NCBI GenBank assembly: GCA_934096405.1
Contig: CAKOLW010000002.1
Coordinates: forward strand, 16,754-80,753
From: an uncultured Bacilli bacterium
GTDB taxonomy: Bacteria; Bacillota_I; Bacilli_A; RF39; UBA660
DNA: 64,000 nt
Direction of reading: 5' to 3'
Below are positions 11,820 through 63,331 of this stretch, one piece after another. Numbering within the stretch: position 1 is the first letter of the stretch; every line of letters begins with the position of its first letter. Under the pieces are notes generated by a model that worked only from the letters and a program-made list of their open reading frames with translations, was not told where the DNA came from and ran no database searches. The position numbers were made by a program, and so were the translations under genes.

Positions 11820-12052
11820 TATTTTTCCCTCCTATATACTTTATTAGACAAAAAATGGTCAATCGCTTTTATTTTCTTTTAATACATAAGATTTTACGTA
11901 CAAACAGTGTTAAAATTTAAACAATTTTAAATTTTGATATGTAAAGTTAGTGTTTTTGTATAAAAAATTATAAAATTAGAATAATAATATTTAGAAAATT
12001 TAAATAAAATAAGTAAAAATAAGAGAAAATATAACTTTTGTCTCATAAACAC

Positions 12053-12081
12053 TTGAAAATAATGAAAAAATATTGTATACT
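12053..12081 (+). promoter_or_regulatory. Promoter of tRNA-Arg (TTGAAA-N17-TATACT)
   Basis: Near-consensus hexamers with 17-nt spacing, about 20 nt upstream of the tRNA 5' end. Confidence 0.6.
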
Positions 12082-12100
12082 TTAGTAGTCGTTGAGAGCT

Positions 12101-12177
<77 letters not shown>

Positions 12178-12186
12178 TTAGAAATT

Positions 12187-20313: not shown

Positions 20314-22998
20314 CTATGCAGATAGAAGACTTTTTAATTCGACAACATTAGAAAACTCACTATAATACGTTGTTCCATCACTAATAGCGTATTTTCTTAC
20401 TTTAAAATATAAATGTCCACCACGTTTTACACTTACATAATTTTGGTTGTTTTCCCACTCTTCTTTTGTTATTGTTTTATTTAAAGTATATTTTCCATCT
20501 TCTGATGTTGAGCTATATACTTCTATACCTGTAGTATAATCTAAATTATCTATCAAAATTTGCATTCTTTGTTCATTTTCATCACCATTCTGACCAGATT
20601 CTGTTATAACTGGTGTTGAAAGGGAACTATCTACATCTAATACGTTTGAAAATTCACTCATATAATATGTATTTTCATCTATGGCAATATATTTTCTTAC
20701 TTTAAAATATAAGTGTTGGCCACTTGGTGCAGAGACTTCAAATGTATTGTTTTCATCTATGTCTTCTTTTTTTATTGTTTTATATAAAGTATATTCTCCG
20801 TCTTCAGATGTTGAACTATATACTTCAATACCTGTTGCTTCAGTTAATAAATTAACACATATTCTTAAAGCATTTCCTGCGTCAGAGCCTTCCCAACCTG
20901 CTTCAGTAATTGTTGGATGACCCATTTCTGCTTTCACTTCTGAATATTCACTATACACTTTATTTCCTTCGGTATTTATTATATATGCTCTTGCTGCATA
21001 TGTCTTTCCATAATTATCTTTTACATCAACTATAGTTTTGAATTCTTGAGAACCTTCAGAAGTTTTTATTAATGCATATGTTTCTCCTGTTTTTTCATAT
21101 ATTTCATAACCGTGTACTTCATTACCTGATTCACCATATATTTGACCATATAAAGTAATTTTATTGTCTTTTATATCAGAATTTATAAATGGTTGTGGTA
21201 CAGGATTTGTTAAAGTTAAGTAATTAGAATAATCACTATATACTTTTTCTCCTCTAGAATTTAATGCATAAACCCTTAATGTATATATTTCAGTTACACC
21301 TTTTTCAATAGTAACTTCTTTATTTAAAATTCCTTCATTTGTTTCAACTAAATTAGGTGCGTTATCAATTACTTTGTATAATTCATAACCGTCTATTAAA
21401 TCAGTTGCTCCTTCTTCTGAATAAGCTCCTTCATAATCAAATCTTAATATTGGTTTATCTATAGTACCTAAAGGATTTGATAATGTTGGTGTTGAAACTT
21501 TATTAACAAGTTCAACAAAATTTGAAAATTCACTATAATATGTTGTTCCATCACTAATAGCATATTTTCTTACCTTAAAATAAAGGTGTTCTCCTTTTTG
21601 TGCACTTACAGTATATGGATGACTTTCCCATTCTTCTTTAGTTATTGTATTTAATAAAGTATATTCTGCGTTTGCTGATGTTGAACTATATACTTCTATA
21701 CCACTGGTGTAATCTAAATTGTCTATTGTTAATATTATTGATTTTACGCCTTCACTTTCACCTTCACCTGTTACATTTAAAACTGGTGTTGAAAGAGAAT
21801 TATTTACATTTAATACATTTGAAAATTCACTAACATAATATGTATTTTCATCTATAGCAATATATTTTCTTACTTTATAATATAAGTGTTGGCCACTTGA
21901 TGCAGAAACTTCAAAAGTATTATTACTACTAATATCTTCTTTTTTTATTGTTTTATATAAAGTATATTCTCCATCTTCTGATGTTGAACTATATACTTCT
22001 ATACCTGTTGCTTCTGTTATTGAATTAATGCATAATAGAATTCCTTGAGGTTCATCGCTTCCACTGGCACCTGCTGTTGTAATTGTTGGATAACTCATTT
22101 CTGCTTTTACTTCTGAATAATCACTATATACTTTGTTTCCATCTGAATCTAATATGTAAGTTCTTGCTGCATATGTCTTTCCATAATTACCTACTAAGTC
22201 CACACTTGTTTGAAAGTTTTGATGAATATTATCTGTATGTATCACATTATAAGTATTACCAACTTTTTCATATACTTCATTTCCAGACATAGTACCGATT
22301 GCTTCTCCACCTATATTTATTTTATTGTTTTCAATATAAACAAACATATTTGGTGCGGCTATAGAATTTGTTAAAGTTAAGTAATCAGAATAATCACTAT
22401 ATACTTTTTCACCTTTTGCATTTATTGCATATACCCTTACTTTGTAAGATTTAGTAGTTCCAATACTAAGTGAAATTTCTTTGTTTAAAATACCTTCTTT
22501 TGTTTCAATTAATTGTAATTTATTAGCAATTAATTCATATAATTCGTAACCATTGATTAAATCAGTTGCTCCTTCTTTTGAATAAGCTTCTTCATAATCA
22601 AATCTTAATATAGGTTTATCTATAGTACCCAATGGATTAGATAATGTTGGTGTATCTAGATAAACATCATTATTTTTATAATTAATCTCAAAAGTTGTTG
22701 GTACATCTACTAATTCATTTGTTAATGCATTGAACCAAAGTCCTCTTGCATTTTTATAGTAAATAATCATATCTTCAAGATTATTACTATCTATTGTTTT
22801 AGCAGCTAACATAATAACATCAGTTGTTAAATAACCTTTATAGTTATTTGTTGTTTCTCTTGTAAACATACTTTTACCAATTATGTATGTTGAATTAGAA
22901 ATATCATTTGTATCTATTTCTCCAGCATTTAGATTATTAATATTTGCAAATGTAAATATTCCAATTAAGAGAACAATGCTACTTAATATTTTCTTCAT
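20314..22998 (-). CDS. Secreted repeat-rich surface protein (894 aa) made of FN3/Ig-like modules
   Basis: Signal peptide MKKILSSIVLLIGIFTFANINNLNA. The modules repeat motifs of the type GIEVYSSTSEDGEYTLYKTI..HLYFKVRKY..YYSEFSN. Confidence 0.85.
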   Translation of the reverse strand: MKKILSSIVLLIGIFTFANINNLNAGEIDTNDISNSTYIIGKSMFTRETTNNYKGYLTTDVIMLAAKTIDSNNLEDMIIYYKNARGLWFNALTNELVDVPTTFEINYKNNDVYLDTPTLSNPLGTIDKPILRFDYEEAYSKEGATDLINGYELYELIANKLQLIETKEGILNKEISLSIGTTKSYKVRVYAINAKGEKVYSDYSDYLTLTNSIAAPNMFVYIENNKINIGGEAIGTMSGNEVYEKVGNTYNVIHTDNIHQNFQTSVDLVGNYGKTYAARTYILDSDGNKVYSDYSEVKAEMSYPTITTAGASGSDEPQGILLCINSITEATGIEVYSSTSEDGEYTLYKTIKKEDISSNNTFEVSASSGQHLYYKVRKYIAIDENTYYVSEFSNVLNVNNSLSTPVLNVTGEGESEGVKSIILTIDNLDYTSGIEVYSSTSANAEYTLLNTITKEEWESHPYTVSAQKGEHLYFKVRKYAISDGTTYYSEFSNFVELVNKVSTPTLSNPLGTIDKPILRFDYEGAYSEEGATDLIDGYELYKVIDNAPNLVETNEGILNKEVTIEKGVTEIYTLRVYALNSRGEKVYSDYSNYLTLTNPVPQPFINSDIKDNKITLYGQIYGESGNEVHGYEIYEKTGETYALIKTSEGSQEFKTIVDVKDNYGKTYAARAYIINTEGNKVYSEYSEVKAEMGHPTITEAGWEGSDAGNALRICVNLLTEATGIEVYSSTSEDGEYTLYKTIKKEDIDENNTFEVSAPSGQHLYFKVRKYIAIDENTYYMSEFSNVLDVDSSLSTPVITESGQNGDENEQRMQILIDNLDYTTGIEVYSSTSEDGKYTLNKTITKEEWENNQNYVSVKRGGHLYFKVRKYAISDGTTYYSEFSNVVELKSLLSA
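20320..22662 (-). repeat. Internal tandem duplication of about 1.17 kb (about 390 aa) inside the surface-protein gene
   Basis: PTLSNPLGTIDKPILRFDYE(E/G)AYS(K/E)EGATDLI(N/D)GYELY.. starts at about aa 113 and again at about aa 503. The DNA segments at 22611-22660 and 21441-21490 are nearly identical. Confidence 0.85.
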
Positions 22999-23008
22999 AT
23001 TTTTCCTC

Positions 23009-23320
23009 CTATTTTATTATAACTTGTGCTTCTACTTTTTTATCATTATTTAGTTTAACTATTAATGTTTTAATATCTTTTATATCAGTATATGAAGCAA
23101 TTGGATTAGTACCATAACATAATATTGTTCCGTCTTCATATCTGATTTCTTTAAATTCTATTTCTTTATCATTTTCATATACAATTAATTTTCTTTCTGG
23201 TGAGTATGCATCTACTGTTTCAAAATTAATTTTATAAGTTTTTTTGTTATAAAATAATAGTACTAACACTATAGCTATTATTAAAACTATAGGTATTATA
23301 ATTATTAATCTCTTTTTCAT
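23009..23320 (-). CDS. Small membrane-anchored protein sharing the C-terminal domain of the upstream 489-aa protein
   Basis: TM anchor followed by YKINFETVDAYSPERKLIVYENDKEIEFKEIRYEDGTILCYGTN... This aligns with YTISRRKTDSYSPDNLLTVYEEGSVISVQRIEYIDGGIICFGNN.. at the end of 23322-24791. Confidence 0.75.
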   Translation of the reverse strand: MKKRLIIIIPIVLIIAIVLVLLFYNKKTYKINFETVDAYSPERKLIVYENDKEIEFKEIRYEDGTILCYGTNPIASYTDIKDIKTLIVKLNNDKKVEAQVIIK

Positions 23321-23321
23321 A

Positions 23322-24791
23322 TTAATTAATTGTAGCAGTTACTTTTATACCACTATTTAGTACTACTACTACTCTTGTCACTCCTAATAAATCAGTATCA
23401 GATGCAGATAAGTTATTTCCAAAACATATTATACCACCATCTATGTATTCTATTCTTTGAACAGATATTACACTTCCTTCTTCATAAACTGTTAATAAGT
23501 TATCTGGTGAATATGAATCAGTTTTTCTTCTAGAAATTGTATATGATTTTTGTACCCAACTTGCTGTTAAAGTAATATTGCTTGTTACAGGATTGTTAAA
23601 ATTGTAAGCACTTCCATTTAATAACCATCCATTAAATTTGTACCCTTCTTTTGTTGGTGATGCTGGTTGAGTAACTTTATTTCCTTCAGTAATAGTTTGT
23701 GAACCGACACTAGTTCCACCATCTGAATTAAATGTAACTGTATATTTTGATAAAGGTTGCCATTTAGCAGTTAGTGTTATATTTTTTGTTATTCCAATAT
23801 TAAAGTCGTATGTTTTTCCATCTAATTGCCATTCTACAAACTTATATCCTTCTTTTGCAGGATTACTTGGTTTTGTTGCTTTATTTCCTTCTGTAATTGT
23901 TTGTGAGTTTACACTACTTCCACCATCTGAATTGAATGTAACTGTGTATTTATTTGCTATTTTGCTCCAACTTGCTACTAGAGTAATGTTTTTAGTTACT
24001 ATAGTATTAAAGTCATATGATTTTCCGTCTAATGTCCATCCTTCAAATGTGTATCCGCTTCTGGTAGGATCTTTAGGCTTACTAGCTTTGTTTCCTTCAA
24101 TAACACTTTGTGAACTAATTAAAGACCCTCCGTTACTATTAAATGATACTGAGTATTTTTTCTTAGTTGGTGTTGTTGGATTATTTGGTTTTGTTGTATT
24201 ACCATTATTTCCATTGTTTCCACTATTGCCATTATTATTTGTGTTATTTCCATTTGTTTGTTTTACTTCTTCCCATTTAGCTTTTAATTTTAGGTTAGTA
24301 GTAACTTCAGTATCAAAGTTGTAAGTTTTTCCATCCAATTGCCATTCTTTGAACACATAATTTGCTTTAACTGGATCTACTGGCTTTACTATTTTTTGAC
24401 CTTTTTCTATTACTTGGTTTGCTATAGTTGTTCCACCATCAGTGTCAAATTCAACTACATAAGTTTTAACGTCTTCTCTTACTTTTTCCCACTTAGCAAT
24501 TAATGTTAAATTTGATGTAACAGCTGAATTAAAGTCATATGTATTACCATTATTAGTCCATTCAACAAATATATAACCTTCTTTTGTAGGATTAGTTGGC
24601 TTTGTAACTTTTTCTCCTTCTTTTATTTTTTGATCACTTATTGTACTTCCACCACCAGTATTGAAAGTGACATTATAAGTTACAGGTACTTCTTCTTTAT
24701 TCATTGTTTTTACAATGACTCCTATAATACCGGCTATAACAACAACTACTATAGCACCGAGTATATAATATAGGCTTTTTTTGTTTTCCAT
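23322..24791 (-). CDS. Membrane-anchored surface protein with six Listeria-Bacteroides (Flg_new/InlB B-type) repeats
   Basis: A repeat of about 70 aa recurs, of the form YTVTFNSDGGSSV.SQTITEGNKATKP..P.KEGYKFVEWQLDGKTYDF....TKNITLTAKW. The linker is Asn/Gly-rich. Confidence 0.8.
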   Translation of the reverse strand: MENKKSLYYILGAIVVVVIAGIIGVIVKTMNKEEVPVTYNVTFNTGGGSTISDQKIKEGEKVTKPTNPTKEGYIFVEWTNNGNTYDFNSAVTSNLTLIAKWEKVREDVKTYVVEFDTDGGTTIANQVIEKGQKIVKPVDPVKANYVFKEWQLDGKTYNFDTEVTTNLKLKAKWEEVKQTNGNNTNNNGNSGNNGNNGNTTKPNNPTTPTKKKYSVSFNSNGGSLISSQSVIEGNKASKPKDPTRSGYTFEGWTLDGKSYDFNTIVTKNITLVASWSKIANKYTVTFNSDGGSSVNSQTITEGNKATKPSNPAKEGYKFVEWQLDGKTYDFNIGITKNITLTAKWQPLSKYTVTFNSDGGTSVGSQTITEGNKVTQPASPTKEGYKFNGWLLNGSAYNFNNPVTSNITLTASWVQKSYTISRRKTDSYSPDNLLTVYEEGSVISVQRIEYIDGGIICFGNNLSASDTDLLGVTRVVVVLNSGIKVTATIN

Positions 24792-24972
24792 CTTTTTCCT
24801 TCCTTTCTGAGCACTAAAAAAATTATAGACTGGTACCTATGATTTTAAAATAACAAAAAACTATGAGAGTTATTTTTAATAACCCCCCCCGAAATTCGTA
24901 CCAAGTTTGGTACTTAATTCAGAGTTGATTAGTACTATCATAGTTTTCATGCTCCTTTTATTTTATGCTTTA
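24792..24972 (-). promoter_or_regulatory. Conserved 5' leader, copy A (candidate cis-regulatory RNA or uORF element)
   Basis: 24809-24983 aligns with 39605-39781. A 41-nt core is identical apart from one C/T: GAATTAAGTACCAAACTTGGTACGAATTT(C/T)GGGGGGGGTTA. It contains the palindrome GTACCAAACTTGGTAC (24898-24913), a G8 run (24883-24890), a weak hairpin plus T-run, and AGTGCTC just before the main RBS. Confidence 0.6.
24876..24941 (-). CDS. Candidate leader mini-ORF A (21 aa, or 24 aa from ATG 24950)
   Basis: GGAG lies 10 nt upstream of the ATG. Sequence: MIVLINSELSTKLGTNFGGGY*. The G8 run encodes GGG. Confidence 0.35.
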   Translation of the reverse strand: MIVLINSELSTKLGTNFGGGY

Positions 24973-25001
24973 ATTTTATCAAATCATTTAATTATATGCA
25001 A
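24973..25001 (-). promoter_or_regulatory. Promoter of the leader-A operon (TTGCAT-N17-TAAAAT, extended -10 TG)
   Basis: The minus strand reads TTGCATataattaaatgatTTGaTAAAATtaaag. Confidence 0.55.
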
Positions 25002-30188: not shown

Positions 30189-30265
30189 GGGCTTGTAGCT
30201 CAGTTGGTTAGAGCGTGCGTCTGATAAGCGCAAGGTCGATGGTTCAAGTCCATCCAGGCCCACCA
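30189..30265 (+). tRNA. tRNA-Ile (anticodon GAT)
   Basis: GGGCTTGTAGCTCAGTTGGTTAGAGC.., anticodon loop CTGATAA, T-loop GGTTCAAGTCC, CCA encoded. Confidence 0.92.
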
Positions 30266-30272
30266 TTTTAAT

Positions 30273-30348
30273 GGCCGGTTGGTGAAATGGTTAACACACA
30301 CGCCTTTCACGCGTGCATTCACGGGTTCAAATCCCGTACCGGTCACCA
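30273..30348 (+). tRNA. tRNA-Glu (anticodon TTC)
   Basis: GGCCGGTTGGTGAAATGG.., anticodon stem CACGC/GCGTG with loop CTTTCAC, T-loop GGTTCAAATCC, CCA encoded. Confidence 0.92.
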
Positions 30349-33063: not shown

Positions 33064-34407
33064 ATGAAATTAGCAGTAACTATTCTTGCTTGTAAGTTAG
33101 CTAATAAAATAAGTAAGTTAACTAAAGGAGAAGGTTCAGTAATTGGTGGCGCGGTAGCATTATATTTGTATAAGAATTGTTTATCTCAGGTTAAGTATCC
33201 AAAAACAATTATAGGTATTACAGGTTCTAGCGGTAAGGGAAGTACTACTGAATTGGTAGCTAAAATATTAAAGGAAAATGGTAAAAATGTTGTATATAAT
33301 AAAAATGGAAGCAATGTTTTAAATGCAGTTGTTAGTTTAATATTAAGTAATTGTAAGTTAAATGGTGAATTTAAAGGTGATGTTCTTTTAATGGAGTTAG
33401 ATGAAAGATATATGGCTGATTCGTTAAAATATTTTGATTTAACTCATTTGGTTGTTACTAATATTACTAGAGATCAACCTCCAAGAAATGCCCATCCTGA
33501 GTTTATACAAGAAGTAATTAGTAAGGTTATTAAGAATAAAACTCATTTAATTCTTGATGTTGATGATCCACTTGTATATGAATTGGCATTAAATCATAAA
33601 GGTAAAGTAACTACTTATGGTATGGATAAAACTAATTATAGTCAAGAATCTATTTTAAATAATAAAGATGCTGGTTATTGTCCAGTATGTGGCAATAAAT
33701 TAAAATACAGTTTTTATCATTATGGTCATTTAGGAAATTATAAATGTAAACATTGTTCATTTAAAAGACCTGAACCAGATTATTTAGCACATAATGTTAA
33801 AGTAGAAGATGGTTTTATATATATAAATAAAAATAAAGTTCATTTACCATCTAATTTCTTATATTCAGTTTACTTTACTACTGCTAGCTACGCTATATGT
33901 AGTACGATTGGTATAAAAAGTAAAGATATAATAAGAGTTATGAATGATGAAGCTTTTAAACCTAAAAGATTAAATATATATAATTTTGATAATAGAAAAT
34001 GGCAAATGTTAGTAAGTAAAAATGAAAATAATTTAAGTTATAAACAATCATTAGATTTTATACTTCATGAAAAAGGAAAGAAAACTATAATATTAGGTTT
34101 TGATAATTCTTCTAGAAGATATAGTGAAAATGATATTAGTTGGATTTGGGATATTGATTTTGAAGAGTTAAATGATGAGTCAATAGATAAAATTCTATTA
34201 ATAGGTAGATTTAAATATGATATGCTGGTTAGAATGGATTATACTGGAGTTAATAAAAATAAGATTATATTAGTAGATAATTTAGAAAATGATTTATTTA
34301 ATATATTAAGAAATAGGACTAAGGGTAATATTTATAGTTGTGTTTGTTTTGATAAAGAGATTGAATTAAAAAATTTATTAAAGAAAGAAGGTATTTCTAA
34401 TGATTAA
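33064..34407 (+). CDS. murT: Lipid II isoglutaminyl synthase subunit MurT (Mur-ligase family)
   Basis: P-loop GITGSSGKGSTT. The Cys4 ribbon is CPVCGNKL..YKCKHC. It is coupled to gatD by a 4-codon overlap. Confidence 0.85.
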   Translation: MKLAVTILACKLANKISKLTKGEGSVIGGAVALYLYKNCLSQVKYPKTIIGITGSSGKGSTTELVAKILKENGKNVVYNKNGSNVLNAVVSLILSNCKLNGEFKGDVLLMELDERYMADSLKYFDLTHLVVTNITRDQPPRNAHPEFIQEVISKVIKNKTHLILDVDDPLVYELALNHKGKVTTYGMDKTNYSQESILNNKDAGYCPVCGNKLKYSFYHYGHLGNYKCKHCSFKRPEPDYLAHNVKVEDGFIYINKNKVHLPSNFLYSVYFTTASYAICSTIGIKSKDIIRVMNDEAFKPKRLNIYNFDNRKWQMLVSKNENNLSYKQSLDFILHEKGKKTIILGFDNSSRRYSENDISWIWDIDFEELNDESIDKILLIGRFKYDMLVRMDYTGVNKNKIILVDNLENDLFNILRNRTKGNIYSCVCFDKEIELKNLLKKEGISND

Positions 34408-35125
34408 GATTAAAATTGCTCATTTATATTATGATATTCTTAATTTATATGGAGAAAATGGTAATATAAGAGCTTTAAAAAAAGCTCTTGAAAGACAAGA
34501 TGTTAAATGTGAAATACATTTCTTAACTATTAATGATAAAATTAATTTTAATGAATATGATATGTTTTATATGGGAATGGGTACTGAAAAAGGTATGTCT
34601 TTAGTACTTGATGATATTATGAAATATAAAGATGAAATAACTAATGCTATTGAAAAAGGTAAATTCTTTTTAACTACTGGTAATTCACTAGAATTATTTG
34701 GAGAATATATTATAAATGGACCTGTTTTTAAAGATTGTTTAAGTTGTTTTGAATTTCATACTTTATGGAAGGGATTTAGAATTGTAGAAAGTGTTGTTGA
34801 TACTACTAAATTTATTAAATATCCTATTATAGGTTTTCAAAATAGATGTGGTAATATGTATCAAATAGAAAAGCCTTTATTTAAAGTTAAGGAAGGTACT
34901 GGCTCTTGCTTAGGTTCACAAATCGAAGGTTATCATTATAAAAATTTCTATGGTACTTATTTAATTGGACCTTTATTAATTAGGAATCCTCATTTTACTA
35001 ACTATTTAGTTAAATCTTTAATTAGTTCAAAGAATAAAAGATATAAATTTAAAATGTTTAATAAAACAGATGAAATAAAAGCATATAATACCTATTTAGA
35101 AAATTTTGTTACAAAAGAAAATTAA
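34400..35125 (+). CDS. gatD: Lipid II isoglutaminyl synthase glutaminase subunit GatD (CobQ-type GATase)
   Basis: IAHLYYDILNLYGENGNIRAL matches the characteristic N-terminus. Length is 241 aa, immediately after murT. Confidence 0.8.
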   Translation: MIKIKIAHLYYDILNLYGENGNIRALKKALERQDVKCEIHFLTINDKINFNEYDMFYMGMGTEKGMSLVLDDIMKYKDEITNAIEKGKFFLTTGNSLELFGEYIINGPVFKDCLSCFEFHTLWKGFRIVESVVDTTKFIKYPIIGFQNRCGNMYQIEKPLFKVKEGTGSCLGSQIEGYHYKNFYGTYLIGPLLIRNPHFTNYLVKSLISSKNKRYKFKMFNKTDEIKAYNTYLENFVTKEN

Positions 35126-35150: not shown

Positions 35151-36746
35151 TTAGCATGTTGAACCTTGTTCATCCACTACATAAGGATTTTCTGGAGTTC
35201 CTGCTCCTGTCACTTTTACACATTTATCTAAAGATATTACTGGTCTTACTTTACCATTTTGTGCACTAATTGTATAGTTATATAAACCACCTAGTCTATT
35301 AGAACCATCTACATACCATACATTTGAAGTTTTTCCATTCCAAAATGAAGGTGACATTACCCACCACCAACTAGTGCCTGTTATACTTTTTCCTTCACTA
35401 TTTGTAGAATAGTATAAATATGGTCCATCTGGATAATTCATAAATACACCACCGGCATATGCTAATTCATCTGCGCTTATTAAGGCTATTGGATAAGTTA
35501 ATTTGCCATTACCATTATTGTTACCACTTACATTAAATTTATCTGCAATTGATTGTGTACTTTCAAATAATCCACCACTTGTATTACCTCCACATTTATA
35601 TGTAGGGCTTTTAGATTTATAAAGTCTTTCTCTAGCTCCGTAAAAGAATGAAGTATTTGAATTGTTTGACCACGTTCCTTCAGTAATACTTCTATCATTA
35701 CAATATATTGCATCTTTACTTATATATTTATCATAACTAGTCAATAAATGTGTTGAATACCAATTATCTATATATTCTTTTATAGTACTGCTGTTGGTAT
35801 TTGAACGATTATCTTCATGACTAGTATTACCTCCATACATATATCCAGCATATCTTGATTCACTATTAACACTATTAAAAGCAGAATTTCCTATATAACC
35901 AGTTGTTGTACTAGGGTCATTTCCAGCATACAATAATCTTATACTTCCATCTTCATTTATTCTTACTATTCTCCAATATATATCATCTCCAGATTTCCAT
36001 AAATTTTCTTCTGATGTATCATCAGTTGAATATTTACCAAACTTAACCCAGTTACTATTTGTATTACCAGAATAATAGTATACATTACTATTATCTTCTG
36101 TTTTATTTGTTTTATATATTGTTCCTGTTGTACTTTCTATATTTATTGTACTAAAGTTAGTTCTTTCACTAATTGTTGAATTATCTTTTAATATTGCTTC
36201 AGTTAATGTACGAGTTGTGTAGTCACTACTTGGTTCAATATAAATATTACCACTTAATGTTTTTTCCATATCATCTGATTGATCAATATAGTTATCATTA
36301 ATATATTTCATTTCAATTGTGTAATCATGAATTTCATTTGGTAATAAATTTATACTATATTTTATTGTAGAATCTCTTTTTATATTTGCCTTAGGTATAT
36401 CTAAGTAATCTGTCATATTGTATCCATTGTTACTACTTGTTATTTTATATACTAAGTATCCTTTAGTTACAAATGTATTTATTAAATTTTTAAAAACTAA
36501 ATTATATTGATAATTATAGTTTGTTTTGTTTTCTACACTAAATGTTTTAGTTACACTCCACCCTGGTTCTATATCTATTCCATCTATTTTTTCTCCATTA
36601 TTAAATATTATTTTTAATTCATTAGTATTAACAGTAATTTTTTTCTTTTCTCCTTCTATTCTAGTAGCAAAATAAGCATATGTTAATCCAATTAATATAA
36701 ATAATATTAAACATATTCCATATATTAAATATTTCTTTTCTTTCAT
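35151..36746 (-). CDS. Secreted protein, family member 2 (SipW-type signal, TasA-like N-domain, lectin-like C-domain)
   Basis: KKYLIYGICLILFILIGLTYAYFATRIEGEKK; IEPGWSVTKTFSVEN; YYYSGNTNSNWVKFG..IYWRIVRINEDG; YPIALISADELAYAGG; WWWVMSPSFW; KVRPVISL. The protein ends in C-x21-C-COOH. The start is ATG 36746 or TTG 36764. Confidence 0.85.
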   Translation of the reverse strand: MKEKKYLIYGICLILFILIGLTYAYFATRIEGEKKKITVNTNELKIIFNNGEKIDGIDIEPGWSVTKTFSVENKTNYNYQYNLVFKNLINTFVTKGYLVYKITSSNNGYNMTDYLDIPKANIKRDSTIKYSINLLPNEIHDYTIEMKYINDNYIDQSDDMEKTLSGNIYIEPSSDYTTRTLTEAILKDNSTISERTNFSTINIESTTGTIYKTNKTEDNSNVYYYSGNTNSNWVKFGKYSTDDTSEENLWKSGDDIYWRIVRINEDGSIRLLYAGNDPSTTTGYIGNSAFNSVNSESRYAGYMYGGNTSHEDNRSNTNSSTIKEYIDNWYSTHLLTSYDKYISKDAIYCNDRSITEGTWSNNSNTSFFYGARERLYKSKSPTYKCGGNTSGGLFESTQSIADKFNVSGNNNGNGKLTYPIALISADELAYAGGVFMNYPDGPYLYYSTNSEGKSITGTSWWWVMSPSFWNGKTSNVWYVDGSNRLGGLYNYTISAQNGKVRPVISLDKCVKVTGAGTPENPYVVDEQGSTC

Positions 36747-36847
36747 TTTTCTTTGTATAATCAATCTTAAAATATTTTGATATGTAATCGATTTATTATA
36801 CTTCTCCTTTCTTTCAAAATTTCTTGACTATAATAGTTTGCCTTCTA

Positions 36848-39586
36848 TCAACAAGTACTAGCACTTTCATCTATTACATATGGATTATCAGCAGTTCCTT
36901 TTCCTGTTACTTTGACACAAGAGTTTAGAGAAATGACAGGACGAACAGCATCCGCGCCGCTCACGCGTCCGCCGCCCAAGCCCGCATCGCCAGAATCCCA
37001 ATAACACTCGCTCGCATAGCTACCAAACCAGTCGAAAGGCGACAAGGACCACCAATAATTTGATACTTTAGTTCCAGAACTATTGCTTATAAACCATGCA
37101 TATGGTGTACTCATACTTGCATACCATGCCGTTCCTCCGGCAAAAGCCATTTCGTCAGCAGTCATTAATGCTACAGGGTAGTCTAACCTTGCACTTGTGT
37201 TTTCCACACTAAATGCATCTCTTATATCACTGCAATTATATGTTGGTGTTTTATCTGTTATTAATCTTTTATGTGACGCAAAATCAAATCCTGTACTTGA
37301 TGTTGTATATGAGCCTTCTGTTTCTTCACTTCTATCATTACAATATATGGCACTTGTACTTAAGTATTTTGTATAATTAGTTAAATTGTTTTGATACCAT
37401 GTATCTATATATGTTTTTATTGTACTATCATATGTATTATTTCTTATTGTATCGAGGGAAGTATCTTCTCCATATTTATAGCCTACATATTTTGGACTAT
37501 TATAGTTTGTATTAAATGCACTTGTTCCTATATTTCCACTTGTTGTATCATGACTTGTTCCTACATAAAGTAGTCTTATACTTCCATCATGATTTGTTCT
37601 TATTATTCTCCAGTAGAATCCCCCAAATAATACCCAGTTATTTGTTGTATTGCCAGCATAATAGTATACTTCTTGTGGTGTACTAGTTATTCCTGCTATA
37701 CTTTCTGTTGAAGTAAACAATGTTCCTGTCGTGGTTGAATTAAAAGGACTACTAAAAGATGTTCTAGATGAAATTGTTGGATTATCTTGTAATATTATTT
37801 CTGCTAAAGTTGATGATGCTTTTTTTCTTAAAATAACTGTACATTCTTGATATTCTATTGGATTTGATATTTTTACTCCAGTACTTGTTATTGTACCAAC
37901 TGCAGTTCCTGTACAACTAACATTTGAATATTCTAATTTATAACCTTCATTTGGCGAAATAATAAATGATGTCTCTTGATTTTTATTTACTACAGCGTAA
38001 TCAGTTTTAGCTTTACCATTTTGTACTTTTAATACTATTATACTTTCATCTTTAGTGTTATCTGAAGAATTATAGTTTACTTCATCAATTTCATAAGGAT
38101 TATTTGCTGTTGCATCTCCTGATTTAATTCTAGCATTTGATGATAGTGATATAACTGGACGAATTACACGTTCTCCATTAACATAAGAATTTGTCATATA
38201 ACCTGGATTACTACTTCCACGTACAGTAAAATTAAGTGCATATGATGTACTCCAATAGTATGGAGTTAACGTCCACCAGAAATTACTTCCTACAATAGAA
38301 TTTCCTTCACTATTTGTATAATACCATGCATAAGGACTAGTTAAATCTTTTCCATTTAATCCACCTGCGAATACTATTTCATCTGCTGTCATTAATGCAA
38401 TTGGGTAGTCTAGATCTCCATTTCCTCCACCACTTATACTTGCACTAAATTTGTCATCATTTGACTGAGTGCTTTCAAGTAATCCATTGCTTGTATTTGC
38501 TCCACATTTATATGATGGACTAATAGTCTTGACAAGTGTGTAATAATCTCCAAAATGAAATCCACTTGTTAGAGAATATGCTTCACTACTTATACTTCTA
38601 TCACTACAATATATTGCTTCTTTACTTATGAATTTATCATAATTAGTTAGCAGATTGTTTTGATACCAATTATCTATGACTTGTTTTATTGTACTTGAAT
38701 TAGAATTTAATCTATTATTTGATAACGAACCGCTTGTTCCATACATATAGCCAACATACATTGGATCATTTGCAGTTGAATTAAATGCAGTATTACCAAT
38801 ATAACCTTCTGTTGTATTATGATTAGTACCTGCATATAAAAGTCTTACACTTCCATCTTCATTAGTACGTATTATTCTCCAAAAATAGCCTCCAAATTTA
38901 ATCCAATTATTTGTTGTATTTCCTGAATAATAATATATATCACTTCTATCTTCTGTTTTATTTGTTTTATATATTGTTCCTGTTGTATCATTGTTATTAG
39001 TTGTATTAAAGCTTGTTCTTTCACTTACTGTTGGATTATCTCTTAAAATTGCTTGTACTAAAGATAACTCTTTTGTTCCTTCTTTTATCATAAATGTTCC
39101 AGATAATTTTTTACCCATATCAGCTGATTGATCTTCTTCTGTATCTTTGTAAATCAATGATATTGTATAGTCATGACTATCTTTAGGATTAATTGTTATA
39201 TAGTGTGCTAAGGTTACATCTGTTTTTTCATTAGTTTTTGGCAAATCTATATATTCTTCCATATTGAATCCATTTGTAGATGTTATCTTATATTGTAAGT
39301 ATCCTTCAGTTACAAATGTATTTAGTAAATCTTTTACATATATATCATAAGTTTCTGTTTCTTTAGATGTACTTTTAACTTTAAAATTAATGCTTGTATT
39401 CCATCCAGGTTCAATAGATACTGCTGGTATTGTTTTTTCTCCTTCGTATTTTATATATACACCAGTAGTTTTTACAGCAAATTCTTTATCATTTCCGAAA
39501 ATTCTTGGCTTAAAATATGCTAAAGTTACTCCTATTGTAATTATTAATATACTTACTACTAATATTGTTAAATACTTTTTCCTCAT
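36848..39586 (-). CDS. Secreted protein, family member 3 (912 aa), with one TasA-like N-domain followed by two lectin-like domains
   Basis: LTILVVSILIITIGVTLAYFKPRIFG; IEPGWNTSINFKV. Domain 1: YYYSGNTTNNWIKFGGYFWRIIRTNEDG..FWWTLTPYYW..VIRPVISL. Domain 2: YYYAGNTTNNWVLFGGFYWRIIRTNHDG..YWWSLSPFDW..AVRPVISL. The protein ends in C-x21-C-COOH. Confidence 0.88.
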   Translation of the reverse strand: MRKKYLTILVVSILIITIGVTLAYFKPRIFGNDKEFAVKTTGVYIKYEGEKTIPAVSIEPGWNTSINFKVKSTSKETETYDIYVKDLLNTFVTEGYLQYKITSTNGFNMEEYIDLPKTNEKTDVTLAHYITINPKDSHDYTISLIYKDTEEDQSADMGKKLSGTFMIKEGTKELSLVQAILRDNPTVSERTSFNTTNNNDTTGTIYKTNKTEDRSDIYYYSGNTTNNWIKFGGYFWRIIRTNEDGSVRLLYAGTNHNTTEGYIGNTAFNSTANDPMYVGYMYGTSGSLSNNRLNSNSSTIKQVIDNWYQNNLLTNYDKFISKEAIYCSDRSISSEAYSLTSGFHFGDYYTLVKTISPSYKCGANTSNGLLESTQSNDDKFSASISGGGNGDLDYPIALMTADEIVFAGGLNGKDLTSPYAWYYTNSEGNSIVGSNFWWTLTPYYWSTSYALNFTVRGSSNPGYMTNSYVNGERVIRPVISLSSNARIKSGDATANNPYEIDEVNYNSSDNTKDESIIVLKVQNGKAKTDYAVVNKNQETSFIISPNEGYKLEYSNVSCTGTAVGTITSTGVKISNPIEYQECTVILRKKASSTLAEIILQDNPTISSRTSFSSPFNSTTTGTLFTSTESIAGITSTPQEVYYYAGNTTNNWVLFGGFYWRIIRTNHDGSIRLLYVGTSHDTTSGNIGTSAFNTNYNSPKYVGYKYGEDTSLDTIRNNTYDSTIKTYIDTWYQNNLTNYTKYLSTSAIYCNDRSEETEGSYTTSSTGFDFASHKRLITDKTPTYNCSDIRDAFSVENTSARLDYPVALMTADEMAFAGGTAWYASMSTPYAWFISNSSGTKVSNYWWSLSPFDWFGSYASECYWDSGDAGLGGGRVSGADAVRPVISLNSCVKVTGKGTADNPYVIDESASTC

Positions 39587-39770
39587 TGCTACCTCCGCTT
39601 TTTAGAGCACTAAAAAACTCATAGACTGGTGCCTATGAATTTAATATAACGAAAAAACTATGGGTGTTATTTATTTTTAACCCCCCCCAAAATTCGTACC
39701 AAGTTTGGTACTTAATTCAAAGAGAATTATTCTTTCCATAGTTCTGTACTCCTCTACTTTTTACTCTTTA
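39587..39770 (-). promoter_or_regulatory. Conserved 5' leader, copy B
   Basis: See copy A. The palindrome is at 39696-39711, the G8 run at 39681-39688, the hairpin CATAGgcaccagtCTATG plus T6 follows, and AGTGCTC lies before the RBS GCGGAGG. Confidence 0.6.
39677..39739 (-). CDS. Candidate leader mini-ORF B (20 aa)
   Basis: GGAG lies 9 nt upstream of the ATG. Sequence: MERIILFELSTKLGTNFGGG*. Confidence 0.35.
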   Translation of the reverse strand: MERIILFELSTKLGTNFGGG

Positions 39771-39799
39771 ATTTTATCAAAAAAAGTAGTCTATTACAA
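39771..39799 (-). promoter_or_regulatory. Promoter of the leader-B operon (TTGTAA-N17-TAAAAT, extended -10), embedded in the terminator hairpin of the upstream gene
   Basis: The minus strand reads aaagtggTTGTAAtagactactttttttGaTAAAATtaaag. This is the same terminator-plus-promoter module as 2824-2859. Confidence 0.55.
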
Positions 39800-51844: not shown

Positions 51845-51876
51845 TCGAAAAGTTCGAGTTATTATCAATTTGGTGC
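51845..51876. repeat. Right copy of the 32-bp direct repeat, overlapping the last 6 nt of tRNA-Thr
   Basis: See 49297-49328. Confidence 0.6.
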
Positions 51877-51946
51877 CGAAAGCAGGATTTGAACCCGCGA
51901 CCTACTGATTACGATTCAGTTGCTCTACCAACTGCGCTATTCCGGC
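51871..51946 (-). tRNA. tRNA-Thr (anticodon CGT)
   Basis: The reverse complement is GCCGGAATAGCGCAGTTGGTAGAGCAACTGAATCGTAATCAGTAGGTCGCGGGTTCAAATCCTGCTTTCGGCACCA. The acceptor is GCCGGAA/TTTCGGC. Confidence 0.88.
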
Positions 51947-52022: not shown

Positions 52023-52377
52023 TGGTGGAGCTGACGAGTATCGAGCTCGTGTCCAAAATATCTACTATACAAGCGTGTACAAGTTTAGTTGGTTTATTAT
52101 TTCAAAAAGTATAATGGATTGCCAACGTTCCTATACTTTTCTAAGTTTAGTAATAATTCTTTATTTAACCTAAACAATTAAATAATATAGTCTACTTTTA
52201 TGAGTCCTAGATCTTTTCTCGTAGACAAAGAAAAGTTAGAACCACCATACATCCTAATAACTAGGCAAAAGCAGGTGCAAAATTATAATCTTTTCCGATT
52301 ATTTTATTTTTGGATTTATAGTATCCCTACTACTTGCGCTCATACGTACAACTATCTTGTCGAAACATAACAGCCCC
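52023..52377 (-). ncRNA. ssrA: tmRNA (ssrA)
   Basis: The 5' end GGGGCTGTTATGTTTCGACAAGATAG parallels the B. subtilis tmRNA 5' end. The 3' end is GGACACGAGCTCGATACTCGTCAGCTCCACCA. The acceptor has the G3:U pair. The tag ORF at 52296-52261 reads GGA AAA GAT TAT AAT TTT GCA CCT GCT TTT GCC TAG, giving (A)GKDYNFAPAFA. Confidence 0.85.
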
Positions 52378-56042: not shown

Positions 56043-59000
56043 TTATTCAGCATCTTCTTTGTTTTCTTCTACTTCTGTATTTTCTTCTTTTGTATCAGTT
56101 AAGAATGTTTCTTCTAGTACTTCTGATGGATCATCACTTAAGAATTCTTTTTCTAACATTAATTCAATATTAGAATATTCTTTAGCACCAGTTCCAGCAG
56201 GAATTAATTTACCTAAGATAACATTTTCTTTTAATCCATTTAGATGGTCAACTTTACCTCTTACAGCAGCATCAGTTAGGATTCTTGTAGTTTCTTGGAA
56301 TGATGCAGCACTTAAGAATGAATCAGTCTCTAAACTAGCTTTAGTGATACCAAGCATTACAGCCTTACCACTAGCAGGTATTTTTCCTTCTAGGATATAA
56401 GGTTTATTTCTTTCAGTAAATTCTCTAATTGAAACTGCTGTACCTTCAACAAAGTCAGTATCACCTTGATCAGTAATCTTAATTTTGTTAATCATTCTCT
56501 TAACAACTGTTTCAATATGCTTATCAGAAACATCAACACCTTGACTCTTATATACTTTTTGAATTTCTCTTAAAATATATTCTTGAACTGTTGTTGGATC
56601 AGTAACAGCTAATAATTCTTTTGGACTTATACTTCCTTCAGTAAGTGCTTGTCCAGCTTCAACCATTTGTCCTTTTTCAACTCTTAGTTTAGCATTATAT
56701 AGTGTTACATGTTCTCTAACTTCAACATCATTTGTAATGTAAATCTTAAATTTACCTTTATCTTCTTGTATCTTTGTAACTTTACCACCAATTTCAGCAA
56801 TAGTTGCTTTTGCTTTTGGAGTTCTTGCTTCAAATAATTCTTCTACACGAGGAAGACCTTGTGTAATATCATCTGCACCAGCAACACCACCAGTATGGAA
56901 TGTACGCATTGTAAGTTGTGTACCAGGTTCACCGATACTTTGAGCAGCCATAATACCTACTGCTTCACCTATTTCTACAACATTACCAGTAGCAAGGTTA
57001 CGTCCATAACATTTTTGACATAATCCATTATGAGTCTTACATGTTAATACACTTCTAATTTCAATCTTAGTTATACCAGCCTTAACTATTTTCTTAGCTA
57101 TATGTTCAGTGATTAATTCACCTTTACCAATAATAACCTCTTTAGTTTCAGGATTAATAACCTTTTGATTAGTAAATCTACCAACTATTCTTTCTTCAAA
57201 ACTTTCTAGTACACTACCTGATTTATCATCAATAAATGCACTAACTTCAAGTCCTTGAATAGTTCCACAATCTTCTTCTTTAATAATTAAATCTTGTACT
57301 ACATCAACAAGTCTACGAGTTAAGTAACCAGCATCAGCTGTCTTAAGAGCAGTATCAGCAGTACCTTTTCTTGAACCATGGCTACTTAAGAAGAATTCTT
57401 GCACGTCAAGTCCTTCTTTAAATGATGCAGTAATAGGAATTTCTACTTCTTCACCATCTGGCTTAGCCATAATTCCACGCATACCACTAAGTTGTCCTAA
57501 TTGAGAAGCATTACCTCTAGCTTTAGAAGTAAATATCATAGCAAGTGGATTAGAATCTTTTTCTTTATCCATTTCATCCATAACTGCTTTTTGAACATCT
57601 TTAGTAGCATTTAACCATAAATCAACAACTTTTCTATGTCTTTCTTCATCAGTAATTAAACCACGTTTATATTGTTTATTTACTTTATCTACAGTTTCTT
57701 GTGTATCGTTTATAATCTTTTCTTTAAAATCAGTTACTGGAATATCACTTAAACTAAATGTAATACCAGATAATGTACTGAATTTAAATCCTTGGTTTTT
57801 AAGTTTATCTAGGAATATACTAGTTTCAGTTGTTTTAAATCTCTTAAATATTTGTGCTATTAATTTTTCTAAGTCTTTCTTAACAAATCCTTTAGCTATA
57901 GGAATCTCTTTTACTCTTTCTGGCAAATTTTCACCTTTTTCAATAAAGTAAATATCTGGAGTTAATCCTTCAAAATTTTCTTTACTTGCTTCATTTACAT
58001 AAGGAAATGCATCAGGTAATATTTCATTAAATATTATTTTACCAGGAGTAGTTACTAAGTATTTATCAATATTAGCATCTGCCCATATTTTATGAGTAAA
58101 ACTTTTAGCAGGAATACATATTCTAGTGTGTAGAGTTATATTTCTTCTTTCATAGTCCATTAATGCTTCATTTGAATTTTTATAAGCTTTACCTTCATGC
58201 TCTAATCCAGCAATCTCAAGAGTTAAGTAATAGTTACCTAATACCATATCCTGTCCTGGAGTAACAATTGGGCTTCCATCTTTAGGTGATAAGATATTGT
58301 TAGCACCTAACATTAATAATCTTGCTTCAGATTGAGCTTCCTCACTTAATGGAACGTGAACTGCCATTTGGTCTCCATCGAAGTCAGCATTAAATGCTGT
58401 ACAAACAAGTGGATGTAATCTTAAAGCCTTACCACCTACTAGTTTAGGTTCAAATGCTTGAATACCTAATCTATGTAGTGTTGGAGCACGGTTAAGTAAT
58501 ACTGGATGTTCTTTAATAACCTCTTCAACAATATCCCATACTCTTTCATCTTGCGCATCTATTAATTTTTTAGCACCTTTAATATTATGAGCTAATTCTC
58601 TTTCAACTAATTCATGTATAACATGTGGTTTAAATAACTCAAGAGCCATTTCTTTTGGAATACCACATTGATACATCTTTAATGATGGTCCTACTGCAAT
58701 AACAGAACGACCTGAGTAGTCTACACGTTTACCTAATAGGTTTTGTCTAAATCTACCTTGTTTACCTTTAAGCATACTTGATAATGATTTTAAAGGTCTA
58801 TTTCCTACACCTTGTACACTTCTTCCACGTCTACCATTATCAATTAAAGCATCTACTGCTTCTTGAAGCATACGTTTTTCATTTTGTACAATAATTGTAG
58901 GAGCACCAAGTTCTAATAATTTCTTAAGACGATTATTTCTATTAATAATTCTTCTATATAAATCATTTAAATCACTTGTTGCAAATCTTCCACCAGGTAA

Positions 59001-59729
59001 TTGTATCATTGGTCTTAAATCAGGTGGTAATACAGGAAGTACATCTAATATCATCCATTCTGGTCTATTTCCACTTTCAATAAAACTTTGTAAACAATCT
59101 ACTCTTTTAACTAATCTTAATTTCTTTTGTCCTTGACTAGCATCTATTTCTTTCTTTAAGCTTTCTACTTCTTTTTCAAGATCTACTTCACTTAATAAAG
59201 TTTTAATTGCTTCAGCACCCATTCCTACTTTAAAAGTGTTTCCATATTTTTCATAATATGCACGATATTCTTTATCAGATAAAGTTTGTTTCTTTTCAAG
59301 AGGAGCATTACCTGGGTCTAATACAACATAACTTACAAAATAAATTACTTCTTCAATATCTCTTGGAGACATATCAAGTACTAGTCCTATCTTAGGTGGT
59401 ACACCTTTAGTATACCAAATGTGAGCAACAGGAGTTGCAAGTTCTATATGTCCCATTCTCTCACGTCTTACTTTAGAACGAGTTACTTCAACTCCACATC
59501 TATCACACACTACATTTTTATATCTTAATCTTTTATATTTTCCACAAGCACATTCAAAATCCTTTGTTGGACCAAATATTTTTTCACAATATAATCCATC
59601 TCTTTCAGGACGAAGTGTTCTATAATTTATAGTTTCAGGCTTTTTAACTTCCCCATAACTCCATGAACGGATTTTTTCAGGTGAAGCGATACCGATTCTA
59701 ATTCCTTCAAATAAATTAACATCCATCAT
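56043..59729 (-). CDS. rpoC: DNA-directed RNA polymerase subunit beta'
   Basis: 1228 aa, with the NADFDGDQM catalytic motif and the zinc-binding CxCGK..C..C. Confidence 0.98.
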
Positions 59730-62700: not shown

Positions 62701-63331
62701 ACACTTTAATAATATCATCATCACTAGACAAACCTAAAGCACGTAAGAATGTTGTAATTGGAACTTTTCTCGTTCTATCTATTCTTACATAGAAAATATT
62801 TCTAGCATCAAGTTCATACTCTAACCAAGTTCCTTTACTAGGTATAACTTCACTTGTAATTATGTTACGTCCATTTTTATCTATTTCTCTTTTGAAATAA
62901 ATACTAGGTGAACGAACTAATTGACAGTTAATTACTCTTTCAACACCATTTACAATAAATGATGCATTTTCTGTCATAAGTGGAATATCTCCTAAGAATA
63001 CCTCTTGTTCTTTAACTTCACCAGTTTCGTTAATAAACAATCTTGCTTTAACTTTTAAAGGCGCAGCATACGTTACTCTTCTTTCTTTAGATTCATTAAC
63101 TGAATATCTAGGTTCTTCTAAAGTATATTCACCAAATTCAAGCGATAAACTTCCACTGAAACTCTCCACTGGAAAAATATCTTCAAATACCTCTTTTATC
63201 CCCTCATCCAAAAATTTTTGAAAAGAATCTTTTTGAATTTCAAGTAAATTTGAAAGTTCAAATCTATTCTTTAATTTTGAGAAATTTCTTCTTTCTCTAG
63301 ACATACCAAACTTTTCAACTTTGTAAGCCAT
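59729..63331 (-). CDS. rpoB: DNA-directed RNA polymerase subunit beta
   Basis: 1200 aa, with conserved blocks such as [14 protein letters not shown]. The C-terminal tail is unusually long and acidic. Confidence 0.98.

Follow-up and report, generated by a model that had tools for sequence, protein, structure and literature searches.

The window analysed here is a stretch of 64,000 nucleotides (nt) of contig CAKOLW010000002.1, from an uncultured Bacilli bacterium, and it contains two copies (A and B) of a leader of ~190 nt, each located immediately upstream of an operon of surface-protein genes on the minus strand (Table 1). Exactly two G/C runs of eight are present in the window, one in each leader. 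Both are C8 on the plus strand and G8 on the minus strand, and 'G8' is the correct description for the transcript because the genes are on the minus strand. The next-longest G/C runs are of five bases (four C5 and one G5); the expectation for G8/C8 in dinucleotide-preserving shuffles is 0.08, and two runs were found in 0 of 100 shuffles. The two leaders are 81% identical when aligned, with a near-identical core extending from GAATTAAG to AGTGCTC, and the two G8 tracts are paralogous and at matching positions, and hence are not independent of each other. In both copies the tract provides the codons GGG GGG GG(T) directly before the stop of a short upstream open reading frame (uORF). A preliminary description of this DNA had reported two homologous G8 runs, no other G/C run longer than five, and use of the runs as the last codons of the uORF, and all of this agrees with the run scan, the shuffles and the alignment. 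GGG is the rarest glycine codon in the window genes (1.8 per 1000, in 11,118 codons), and an in-frame GGGGGG is absent from the same 11,118 codons. A search of the window with an nhmmer profile of the leader found no copies beyond A and B.

From 5′ to 3′ the leader consists of a promoter, the Shine-Dalgarno sequence and uORF, a long hairpin, two terminator-like hairpins (T1 and T2), the motif AGUGCUC, and the Shine-Dalgarno sequence and start of the first gene. The copy A promoter was missed by a simple scan, which flagged the equivalent site in copy B, and this is because the −35 of copy A is weak. The uORF Shine-Dalgarno is 9–10 nt ahead of the AUG in the window leaders, and the AUG itself is inside the outer helix of the long hairpin (P1), in which AACUAUGR pairs with YCAUAGUU. 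The uORF stop has on its 3′ side a conserved AACUCUC, which in copy B reads ACACCC, and then AUAGUUUUUU, and T2 has the consensus CAUAGGYACCAGUCUAUR with a U run after it. T1 of copy A was flagged by a terminator scan, against an expectation of 0.0 in shuffled sequence, and both T1 and T2 are candidate transcription terminators. In the minimum free energy fold of copy A the uORF Shine-Dalgarno is paired with AGUGCUC, and this pairing is retained in copy B (GAGUAC with GUGCUC) and in some, although not all, related copies. There is no Rfam match at the gathering score in the whole window, with best E-values for the leaders of 0.31 or worse, and the leader family is undescribed in Rfam.

Related leaders are numerous in other genomes. 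The metagenome-assembled genome (MAG) CAKOLN01, which is that of an uncultured Bacilli bacterium and comes from a Hadza gut sample, has 24 matches to an 18-nt core of the apical hairpin, the MAG CAKORV01 has one, and each of these matches is a full leader ahead of a member of a mosaic secreted-protein family. The location before surface-protein genes, noted initially for the two window copies, is thus repeated ~24 times in one related genome. A metagenome scan with a pattern that excluded the hairpin and the G run added 18 human-gut leader loci. There are at least four leader classes, with the promoter, P1, the T1 3′ arm and T2 common to all, and because the central hairpin differs between classes the uORF peptide also differs, being M.E.I.FELSTKLGT(NF/EI)GGG(YY) in class 1, MRILKNSNCNNNCLLWGG in class 2, MKLNNFFHIKTIVCYGGGYY in class 3, and MSNVINFGICIKFSTNGG in class 4. 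The leader is not a general trait of the protein family and is a feature of a narrow clade, since four distant homologues with 43–55% identity to the 912-amino-acid (aa) protein of operon B (P0034, P0004, P0215, and P0188) have ordinary promoters and no leader.

The upstream regions of two distant homologues contain a part of the leader or a sequence resembling it. One example is P0195 (L079/L080), which has a short form of the leader ~130 nt upstream, with P1, a 14-codon uORF and a CAUAGUUUUU tail, and which lacks the G run and the second hairpin; it may be an ancestral or a degenerate version. A second example is the leaderless P0215 (L070–L074), where ~40 nt upstream there is TTTGATAGAAT followed by AGGAGTAATGACACTATG, resembling the uORF promoter, Shine-Dalgarno and ACTATG. 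This resemblance suggests that the uORF start may derive from an ancestral gene start, and the hairpins and a second ribosome-binding site may have been inserted behind it.

A uORF with its stop right behind the G run is kept in all four classes, and G8 is kept in three of the four. In all classes GGAG precedes the uORF AUG by 7–12 nt, and the AUG frame is free of stops to just past the G run in all seven representatives of the four classes; the other two frames carry stops (0–4 per frame), and the chance of an open frame is ~0.2 per class. With its ribosome-binding site and its frame open in every class the uORF looks real, as had been supposed, and it is probably translated. One explanation for its conservation is that it encodes a functional small peptide (a double-glycine leader, a signal, or a cis-acting arrest peptide), with the G run serving only for the terminal Gly-Gly(-Gly). 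Consistent with this, GG or GGG is near the stop in all classes, and ELSTKLGT is identical in three species in spite of synonymous variants (GAA/GAG, CTA/TTA, AAA/AAG, and TTC/TTT). However, the class peptides are unrelated to each other, the conserved stretch also forms a perfect hairpin in the RNA, at least seven copies have a Leu-to-Ser change (TTA to TCA), and the neighbouring ABC transporters are without a peptidase domain. We therefore regard a peptide function as highly improbable, and a bacteriocin-type double-glycine leader, for which there are only one or two Tyr residues after the GG(G) and the peptides are class-specific, was rejected.

RNA structure is well supported. The window leaders fold better than shuffled sequence (z = −4.2 and −4.7), and the same is true of the uORF hairpins in the four classes with a G tract (z between −4.3 and −7.2). 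When 20 diverse leaders are aligned, 93% of the P1, T1 and T2 cells are paired, compared with 31–56% in controls with slid partners. Both sides have changed in five pairs, of which three are in T2; by helix, the compensatory changes are in three pairs in T2, one or two in T1, and one in P1, where an A-U pair is replaced by G-C between copies A and B. A hairpin equivalent to T1 is found in every leader class. The compensatory changes bear out the proposal that the leader has a conserved structure which includes terminator-like hairpins. The palindrome GTACCAAACTTGGTAC was also considered as a protein operator, and this is not favoured because the other classes replace it with different hairpins, such that hairpin formation is what is conserved. 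We note that both window copies (24898–24924 and 39696–39722) have the same 29-nt stretch, GAATTAAGTACCAAACTTGGTACGAATTT, and that two other species, in which the proteins are only ~50% identical, have most of it unchanged (class-1 leaders, L008–L047). This exceeds what a plain hairpin needs, and a sequence-specific reader (a peptide, a protein, or an RNA partner) may exist.

The G run participates in two pairings that are mutually exclusive. The first partner is the upstream pyrimidine tract, which is exactly 8 nt long in classes 1 and 3, and the second is the downstream CUCUC, present in all classes, which with the G run forms the T1 hairpin followed by its U run. As an arm of conserved helices, the G run cannot be taken from its conservation alone as proof of selection for mutability. 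A second explanation for the leader is then a translation-sensing attenuator with no mutational switch, in which G8 provides two or three very rare GGG codons that slow the ribosome as it nears the uORF stop, together with a shared helix arm; expression would follow translation status or the supply of Gly-tRNA, and tracts of seven or nine G would be ordinary, mostly deleterious mutations. The rarity of GGG and absence of GGGGGG in the window genes fit this well, as do the two exclusive partners and the 8-nt length of the pyrimidine partner, and the strong predominance of G8 and its constancy at each locus between assemblies (see below) could also reflect such a non-mutational attenuator. However, the regulated genes are for surface proteins and not for glycine or translation functions, otherwise intact leaders persist with interrupted tracts that have no GGG GGG codons, and a helix requiring only G:Y pairs should tolerate A or interrupted purines more often than is observed. 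Moreover, three loci with G9 are present in one genome, with the normal stop abolished and the leaders and genes intact. We consider an attenuator of this type unlikely, and an amino-acid-sensing attenuator of the trp/his type was rejected because the Gly codons do not match the surface-protein genes downstream.

The tract is G8 in ~34 distinct leaders, G9 at three loci, all in CAKOLN01 (L017, L031, and L030), and G7 in a single leader (L065). Another ~11 leaders have a short, interrupted or absent tract (AG5, G5A, G5, AGGAGGA, GGAAAGGGAGGG, GAGGGAGGG, GGTAGGG, or none). The complete tracts in CAKOLN01 are 19 G8 and three G9, and the G7 allele is from another sample. G7, G8 and G9 are all found in leaders that are otherwise near-identical, and the tract does appear to vary by single bases, as expected for a run of eight G. 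A short tract (AG5, L022) and a G8 tract (L047) are found at loci that look orthologous. G/C homopolymers are hypermutable from a length of about seven or eight, and the G8 tract reaches the length expected of a slipped-strand contingency locus; it may switch at a useful rate.

Changes in tract length have specific consequences for the uORF. With its native tract, the uORF of each of the seven representatives stops 11–19 nt before the P1 3′ arm and 37–45 nt before the conserved AUAGG of T2. In each class, one of the two single-base changes places the stop inside T2: this is the +1 change in classes 1 and 3 and the −1 change in classes 2 and 4. The shifted stop is a UAG in the T2 5′ arm, except in copy A of the window, which instead meets a TAA in the T2 3′ arm. 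The opposite change extends the uORF by no more than a few codons, with the exception of G7 in copy A, where the stop lies 18 nt beyond the point at which the P1 3′ arm begins. With G9, copy A is extended by 18 codons (20 after the G tract) to the TAA of CUAUAA, located in the 3′ arm of T2, and with G7 by ten codons (13 after the last GGG) to the UAA in UUAUUUUAA; earlier translations of these two frames by hand are the same as those recomputed here. Copy B with G9 reads on to a UAG that lies in the 5′ arm of T2, and with G7 it gains three codons only. All three of the natural G9 alleles place the stop in T2.

In every class, one of the alternative frames has no stop before T2, which also raises the possibility that RNA polymerase slippage, or +1/−1 ribosomal frameshifting, on G8 sets a fixed level of read-through or basal expression for each operon. 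Glycyl-tRNA would be able to re-pair perfectly in any frame on G8, and a constant tract length at each locus is in keeping with this. Transcriptional slippage is, however, best documented on A/T runs of nine or more, and the existence of stable G9 and G7 alleles is unexplained by it. We find this explanation very improbable.

The best explanation, and a plausible one, is that the leader is a phase-variable switch in which the length of the uORF determines the fate of a terminator, a reading that we hold with evenly balanced confidence. Transcription would begin at the extended −10 promoter, and the Shine-Dalgarno would load ribosomes onto a uORF of 20–22 codons that lies inside the long hairpin, itself composed of P1, the helix between the pyrimidine tract and G8, and the apical hairpin. 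The G tract would encode the final glycines, with the stop within one to three codons; T1, in which the G run pairs with CUCUC ahead of a U run, would be followed ~25 nt downstream by T2. With G8, the ribosome would be released upstream of the P1 3′ arm and T2, T2 would form, and most transcripts would end (low, or OFF). Gain or loss of one G by strand slippage would shift the frame, the +1 change to G9 being the relevant one in class 1, which includes both window copies. With G9, the ribosome would pass T1 and stop in T2 (in the 5′ arm in copy B and the 3′ arm in copy A), and a ribosome stopped there would block formation of T2 and allow read-through (ON). Both window operons are predicted to be low with G8 and high with G9, and CAKOLN01, with its 19 G8 and three G9 loci, would express a small subset of the family.

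The switch proposed in the preliminary description is thus supported in part, by the shift of the stop into T2 and by the presence of natural G7, G8 and G9 alleles; it is weakened by the structural role of the G run and by the comparison of assemblies, in which no locus varied in tract length. Several observations weigh against switching. First, loci were sampled in two to five assemblies, and no difference in tract length was seen at any of them; the copy A locus is G8 in all five contigs from different assemblies, the copy B locus is G8 in both contigs read (the gene is in four), the P0121/L030 locus is G9 in three of three, and L083 matches L032 at G8, although many of these assemblies are from one Hadza study population and may be of the same strain. 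Second, G8 is strongly modal (~34 of 38 uninterrupted tracts), which also fits stabilising selection on a structural length, and the G run is engaged in conserved RNA helices. Third, the ~11 leaders with a short, interrupted or absent tract have kept the rest of the leader; interrupted G/A tracts in an intact leader had been named at the outset as evidence against a switch, and these are a minority. Five of the ~10 non-slippery variants (L022, L045, L046, L075, and L078) are in the read-through frame, with the stop in or immediately before T2, but this is roughly the proportion expected by chance, and such locked alleles are uninformative. Fourth, T2 is weak in copy A (−2.3 kcal/mol, compared with −10.7 to −12.4 kcal/mol in most other copies), and T2 of neither copy A nor copy B was flagged by a consensus terminator scan. 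Finally, the G7 and G9 calls are from short-read metagenome assemblies of a multi-copy repeat, and ribosome-coupled attenuation is regarded as uncommon among Firmicutes. We also considered an invertible DNA switch, as for C. difficile cwpV or the Bacteroides invertons. The P1 arms are inverted repeats of 8–10 bp, and a recombinase was not found beside either window copy; the G run is on the gene sense strand in all ~60 copies, and because only one orientation is found an invertible switch was rejected.

There are also indications of exchange between leaders. One example is P0152, which is behind a class-3 leader with an interrupted tract in L075 and a class-1 G8 leader in L076. A second example is P0121, which has a G9 leader in L066–L068, and a different leader (G7) and a different upstream gene in L065. 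These instances of the same coding sequence with different leaders represent either real recombination in a shared block of promoter, leader and signal peptide, or chimeric assembly. Many contigs start or end inside the leader (L011, L018, L025, L026, L010, L034, and L045), and a multi-copy element of ~190 nt breaks short-read assemblies. It could be argued from these swaps, from the contig ends, and from the mosaic nature of the paralogous proteins that the leader is mainly a recombination cassette, a shared block of 5′ homology by which variable surface-protein genes could be shuffled or converted, and in which G8 is carried along through recent duplication and gene conversion with no role of its own. 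However, the layout of G8 and uORF stop is shared by three classes that are unrelated in central sequence, and by species in which protein identity is no more than ~45–55%, and there are compensatory changes in the helices. The swaps could moreover be chimeric joins at the 190-nt repeat, and a role in regulation is in any case compatible with recombination. As the principal explanation of the leader, a cassette is improbable.

Table 1. Positions of leader components, operons, and helix-turn-helix genes. Positions are those of the window, except for the helix-turn-helix genes, where the locus is named.
Feature	Position	Strand	Details
Operon A	20314-24791	-	489-aa membrane-anchored Listeria-Bacteroides-repeat protein, 103-aa protein, 894-aa secreted protein
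Operon B	35151-39586	-	two variable surface-protein family paralogues, 912 aa and ~531 aa
Copy A extended -10 promoter, TGATAAAAT	24973-24981	-	kept in nearly all leader copies
Copy A Shine-Dalgarno, AGGAG	24952-24956	-	10 nt before uORF AUG; can pair with AGUGCUC at 24809-24815
Copy A P1 5′ arm, AAAACUAUGA	24938-24947	-	includes uORF AUG; partner at 24857-24866
Copy A uORF, MIVLINSELSTKLGTNFGGGY	24876-24941	-	21 codons and stop; translated from the sequence
Copy A apical hairpin, GUACCA-AACU-UGGUAC	24898-24913	-	identical in class-1 leaders of three species
Copy A G8 tract (C8 on plus strand)	24883-24890	-	last uORF Gly codons; arm of two alternative helices
Copy A T1 (terminator-like), GGGGGUUAUU-AAA-AAUAACUCUC, then AUAGUUUUUU	24865-24887	-	terminator scan; -7.7 kcal/mol
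Copy A P1 3′ arm, UCAUAGUUUU	24857-24866	-	from fold and alignment
Copy A T2 (terminator-like), AAAAUCAUAGG-UACCAG-UCUAUAAUUUU and U run	24816-24846	-	weak, -2.3 kcal/mol
Copy A AGUGCUC	24809-24815	-	long-range partner of uORF Shine-Dalgarno region; from fold
Copy B promoter, TTGTAA-17-TAAAAT with TG extension	39771-39799	-	-10 flagged by scan together with -35
Copy B uORF Shine-Dalgarno, GAGGAG	39749-39754	-	from the sequence
Copy B uORF, MERIILFELSTKLGTNFGGG	39677-39739	-	20 codons and stop; translated from the sequence
Copy B pyrimidine-rich tract, UAAUUCUCUUUGAA	39716-39729	-	pairs with UUUGGGGGGGGUUA; pairing also present in class-1 and class-3 relatives
Copy B apical hairpin, GUACCA-AACU-UGGUAC	39696-39711	-	from fold
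Copy B G8 tract	39681-39688	-	run scan
Copy B T1, G run with UAACACCC, then AUAGUUUUUU	39662-39685	-	-5.3 kcal/mol; unflagged by simple scan
Copy B T2, AAAUUCAUAGGC-ACCA-GUCUAUGAGUUU and U run	39612-39642	-	12-bp hairpin; -12.4 kcal/mol
Copy B AGUGCUC	39605-39611	-	from fold
XRE-type helix-turn-helix gene, L066/L067	156-386		
XRE-type helix-turn-helix gene, L083	157-387		
XRE-type helix-turn-helix gene, L051-L057	1031-1297		
XRE-type helix-turn-helix gene, L061	4216-4476		

The family to which the operon B proteins belong has more than 5,000 metagenome homologues, with a signal-anchor N-terminus and mosaic middle parts, and a few of these carry DUF6273. The ~531-aa paralogue (35151–36764, minus strand) is 48% identical to the 912-aa protein, from which it is separated by a gap of 83 nt, and it is without a leader of its own; its listed TTG start is probably six codons early, with the likely start at MKEKKY. 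In operon A, the 103-aa protein (23009–23320, minus strand) has 35–40% identity to the C-terminal 75–90 residues of the 489-aa repeat protein. Genes coding for XRE-type helix-turn-helix proteins of 76–88 aa often adjoin members of the family, and are sometimes immediately 5′ of the leader promoter, and no such gene adjoins either of the window copies.

Elsewhere in the window there are a tmRNA gene and four tRNA genes, at 52023–52377 and 51874–51946 (minus strand) and 30189–30345 and 12101–12174 (plus strand), and the tRNA at 12101–12174 overlaps an opposite-strand open reading frame (11927–12178) that, as a consequence, is probably not a gene. The intervals 56043–63331 (minus strand) and 33064–35125 (plus strand) account for two very long open reading frames of 1228 and 1200 aa, which from their position and size we take to be candidates for rpoC and rpoB, and for MurT/GatD-type genes (Mur_ligase_M with MurT_C, and GATase_3), whose presence suggests a peptidoglycan wall. 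The genome is ~26% G+C, with a strong skew of T over A and C over G on the plus strand.

The leader represents a new cis-regulatory family, restricted to a little-known group of gut bacteria that has so far come mostly from Hadza and other human gut metagenomes. If the switch operates as proposed, many surface phenotypes could arise from one genome, which bears on evasion of immunity and of phages by uncultured commensals. A broader and more tentative view, towards which we lean less than not, is that this clade of low-GC gut Bacilli has a genome-wide 'phasome' of at least two dozen poly-G-switched surface operons, with combinatorial variation and a class-specific layer of control. The possibility of chimeric joins at the repeat means that long reads are needed to link leaders to genes in MAGs of this clade, and the switch hypothesis itself is testable with existing sequencing reads and simple reporters.

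The leader shares features with several known systems. It resembles trp/his attenuation in having a translated leader open reading frame, alternative pairings, a terminator, and identical rare codons near the leader end, and differs from it in that surface-protein genes are downstream and in that the proposed variable is the length of the uORF, and thus the genotype, and not stalling on a scarce amino acid. In the vlp genes of Mycoplasma hyorhinis (poly-A) and the tpr genes of Treponema pallidum (poly-G), a homopolymeric tract in or next to the promoter acts on transcription initiation. As in these multigene families (PMC7864442), many paralogous surface genes share a 5′ region with a homopolymer, and independent and combinatorial switching would be possible. 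Unlike in vlp and tpr, the tract here is downstream of the promoter and inside a translated uORF.

Two systems provide parallels for the RNA pairing. The mRNA leader of Helicobacter pylori tlpB also has a homopolymeric G run with a C/U-rich partner, and the variable length of the G repeat sets post-transcriptional output via the small RNA RepG (PMC8295292). The partner is a small RNA acting in trans in tlpB and a cis-encoded pyrimidine tract in the leader described here, and tlpB is a single locus in a Gram-negative host, with gradual regulation and no uORF or terminator logic (PMC8295292). In the 5′ untranslated region of Haemophilus influenzae hmw1A there is likewise a transcribed repeat before an adhesin gene, with a pyrimidine arm and a G-rich arm forming a long hairpin, and RNA structure is central to the phase-variable output (PMC12721329). 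There, however, it is the pyrimidine-rich heptamer that varies and the G-rich arm that is fixed, whereas here the G arm is the candidate variable; hmw1A also involves RNase III processing and has no uORF, whereas here the uORF spans the G arm (PMC12721329).

The closest precedent is the pil1 and pil3 loci of Streptococcus gallolyticus, and not Campylobacter or Mycoplasma, to which the leader had been compared in the preliminary description, since the same logic has been demonstrated experimentally at the pilus loci. In these, GCAGA repeats are within a leader-peptide open reading frame upstream of a premature terminator; when the leader stop is at least 28 nt upstream of the terminator pilus expression is low, and when an out-of-frame change in the repeats moves the stop to immediately upstream of, within, or beyond the terminator expression is high, with the ribosome keeping the terminator hairpin from forming (PMC3894217). 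The pil1 leader has a promoter, Shine-Dalgarno, repeat-bearing leader open reading frame, terminator, and surface-protein (pilus) operon in the same order as the leader described here with its putative terminators. In both, the default stop lies ~30–40 nt ahead of the terminator hairpin, and a change in the repeat that breaks the frame gives a longer leader peptide with its stop within or after that hairpin (PMC3894217). Both hosts are also Gram-positive gut bacteria. There are nonetheless clear differences, in that the pil1 repeat is of 13–22 GCAGA units and not a G8 homopolymer (PMC3894217). The leader sequences are unrelated, the repeat is here the arm of an RNA helix, and there are two terminator-like hairpins; there are ~24 copies per genome in several classes, associated with a mosaic gene family, as opposed to one or two pilus loci; and the pil1 mechanism is proven by experiment, whereas the present leader is known from sequence alone. 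The kind of mechanism is thus a known one, and the novelty is in the structural homopolymer, the two hairpins, the several classes, and the number of copies per genome. If the proposed switch is correct, a mechanism known from two pilus loci of one streptococcus extends to a multi-copy homopolymer system.

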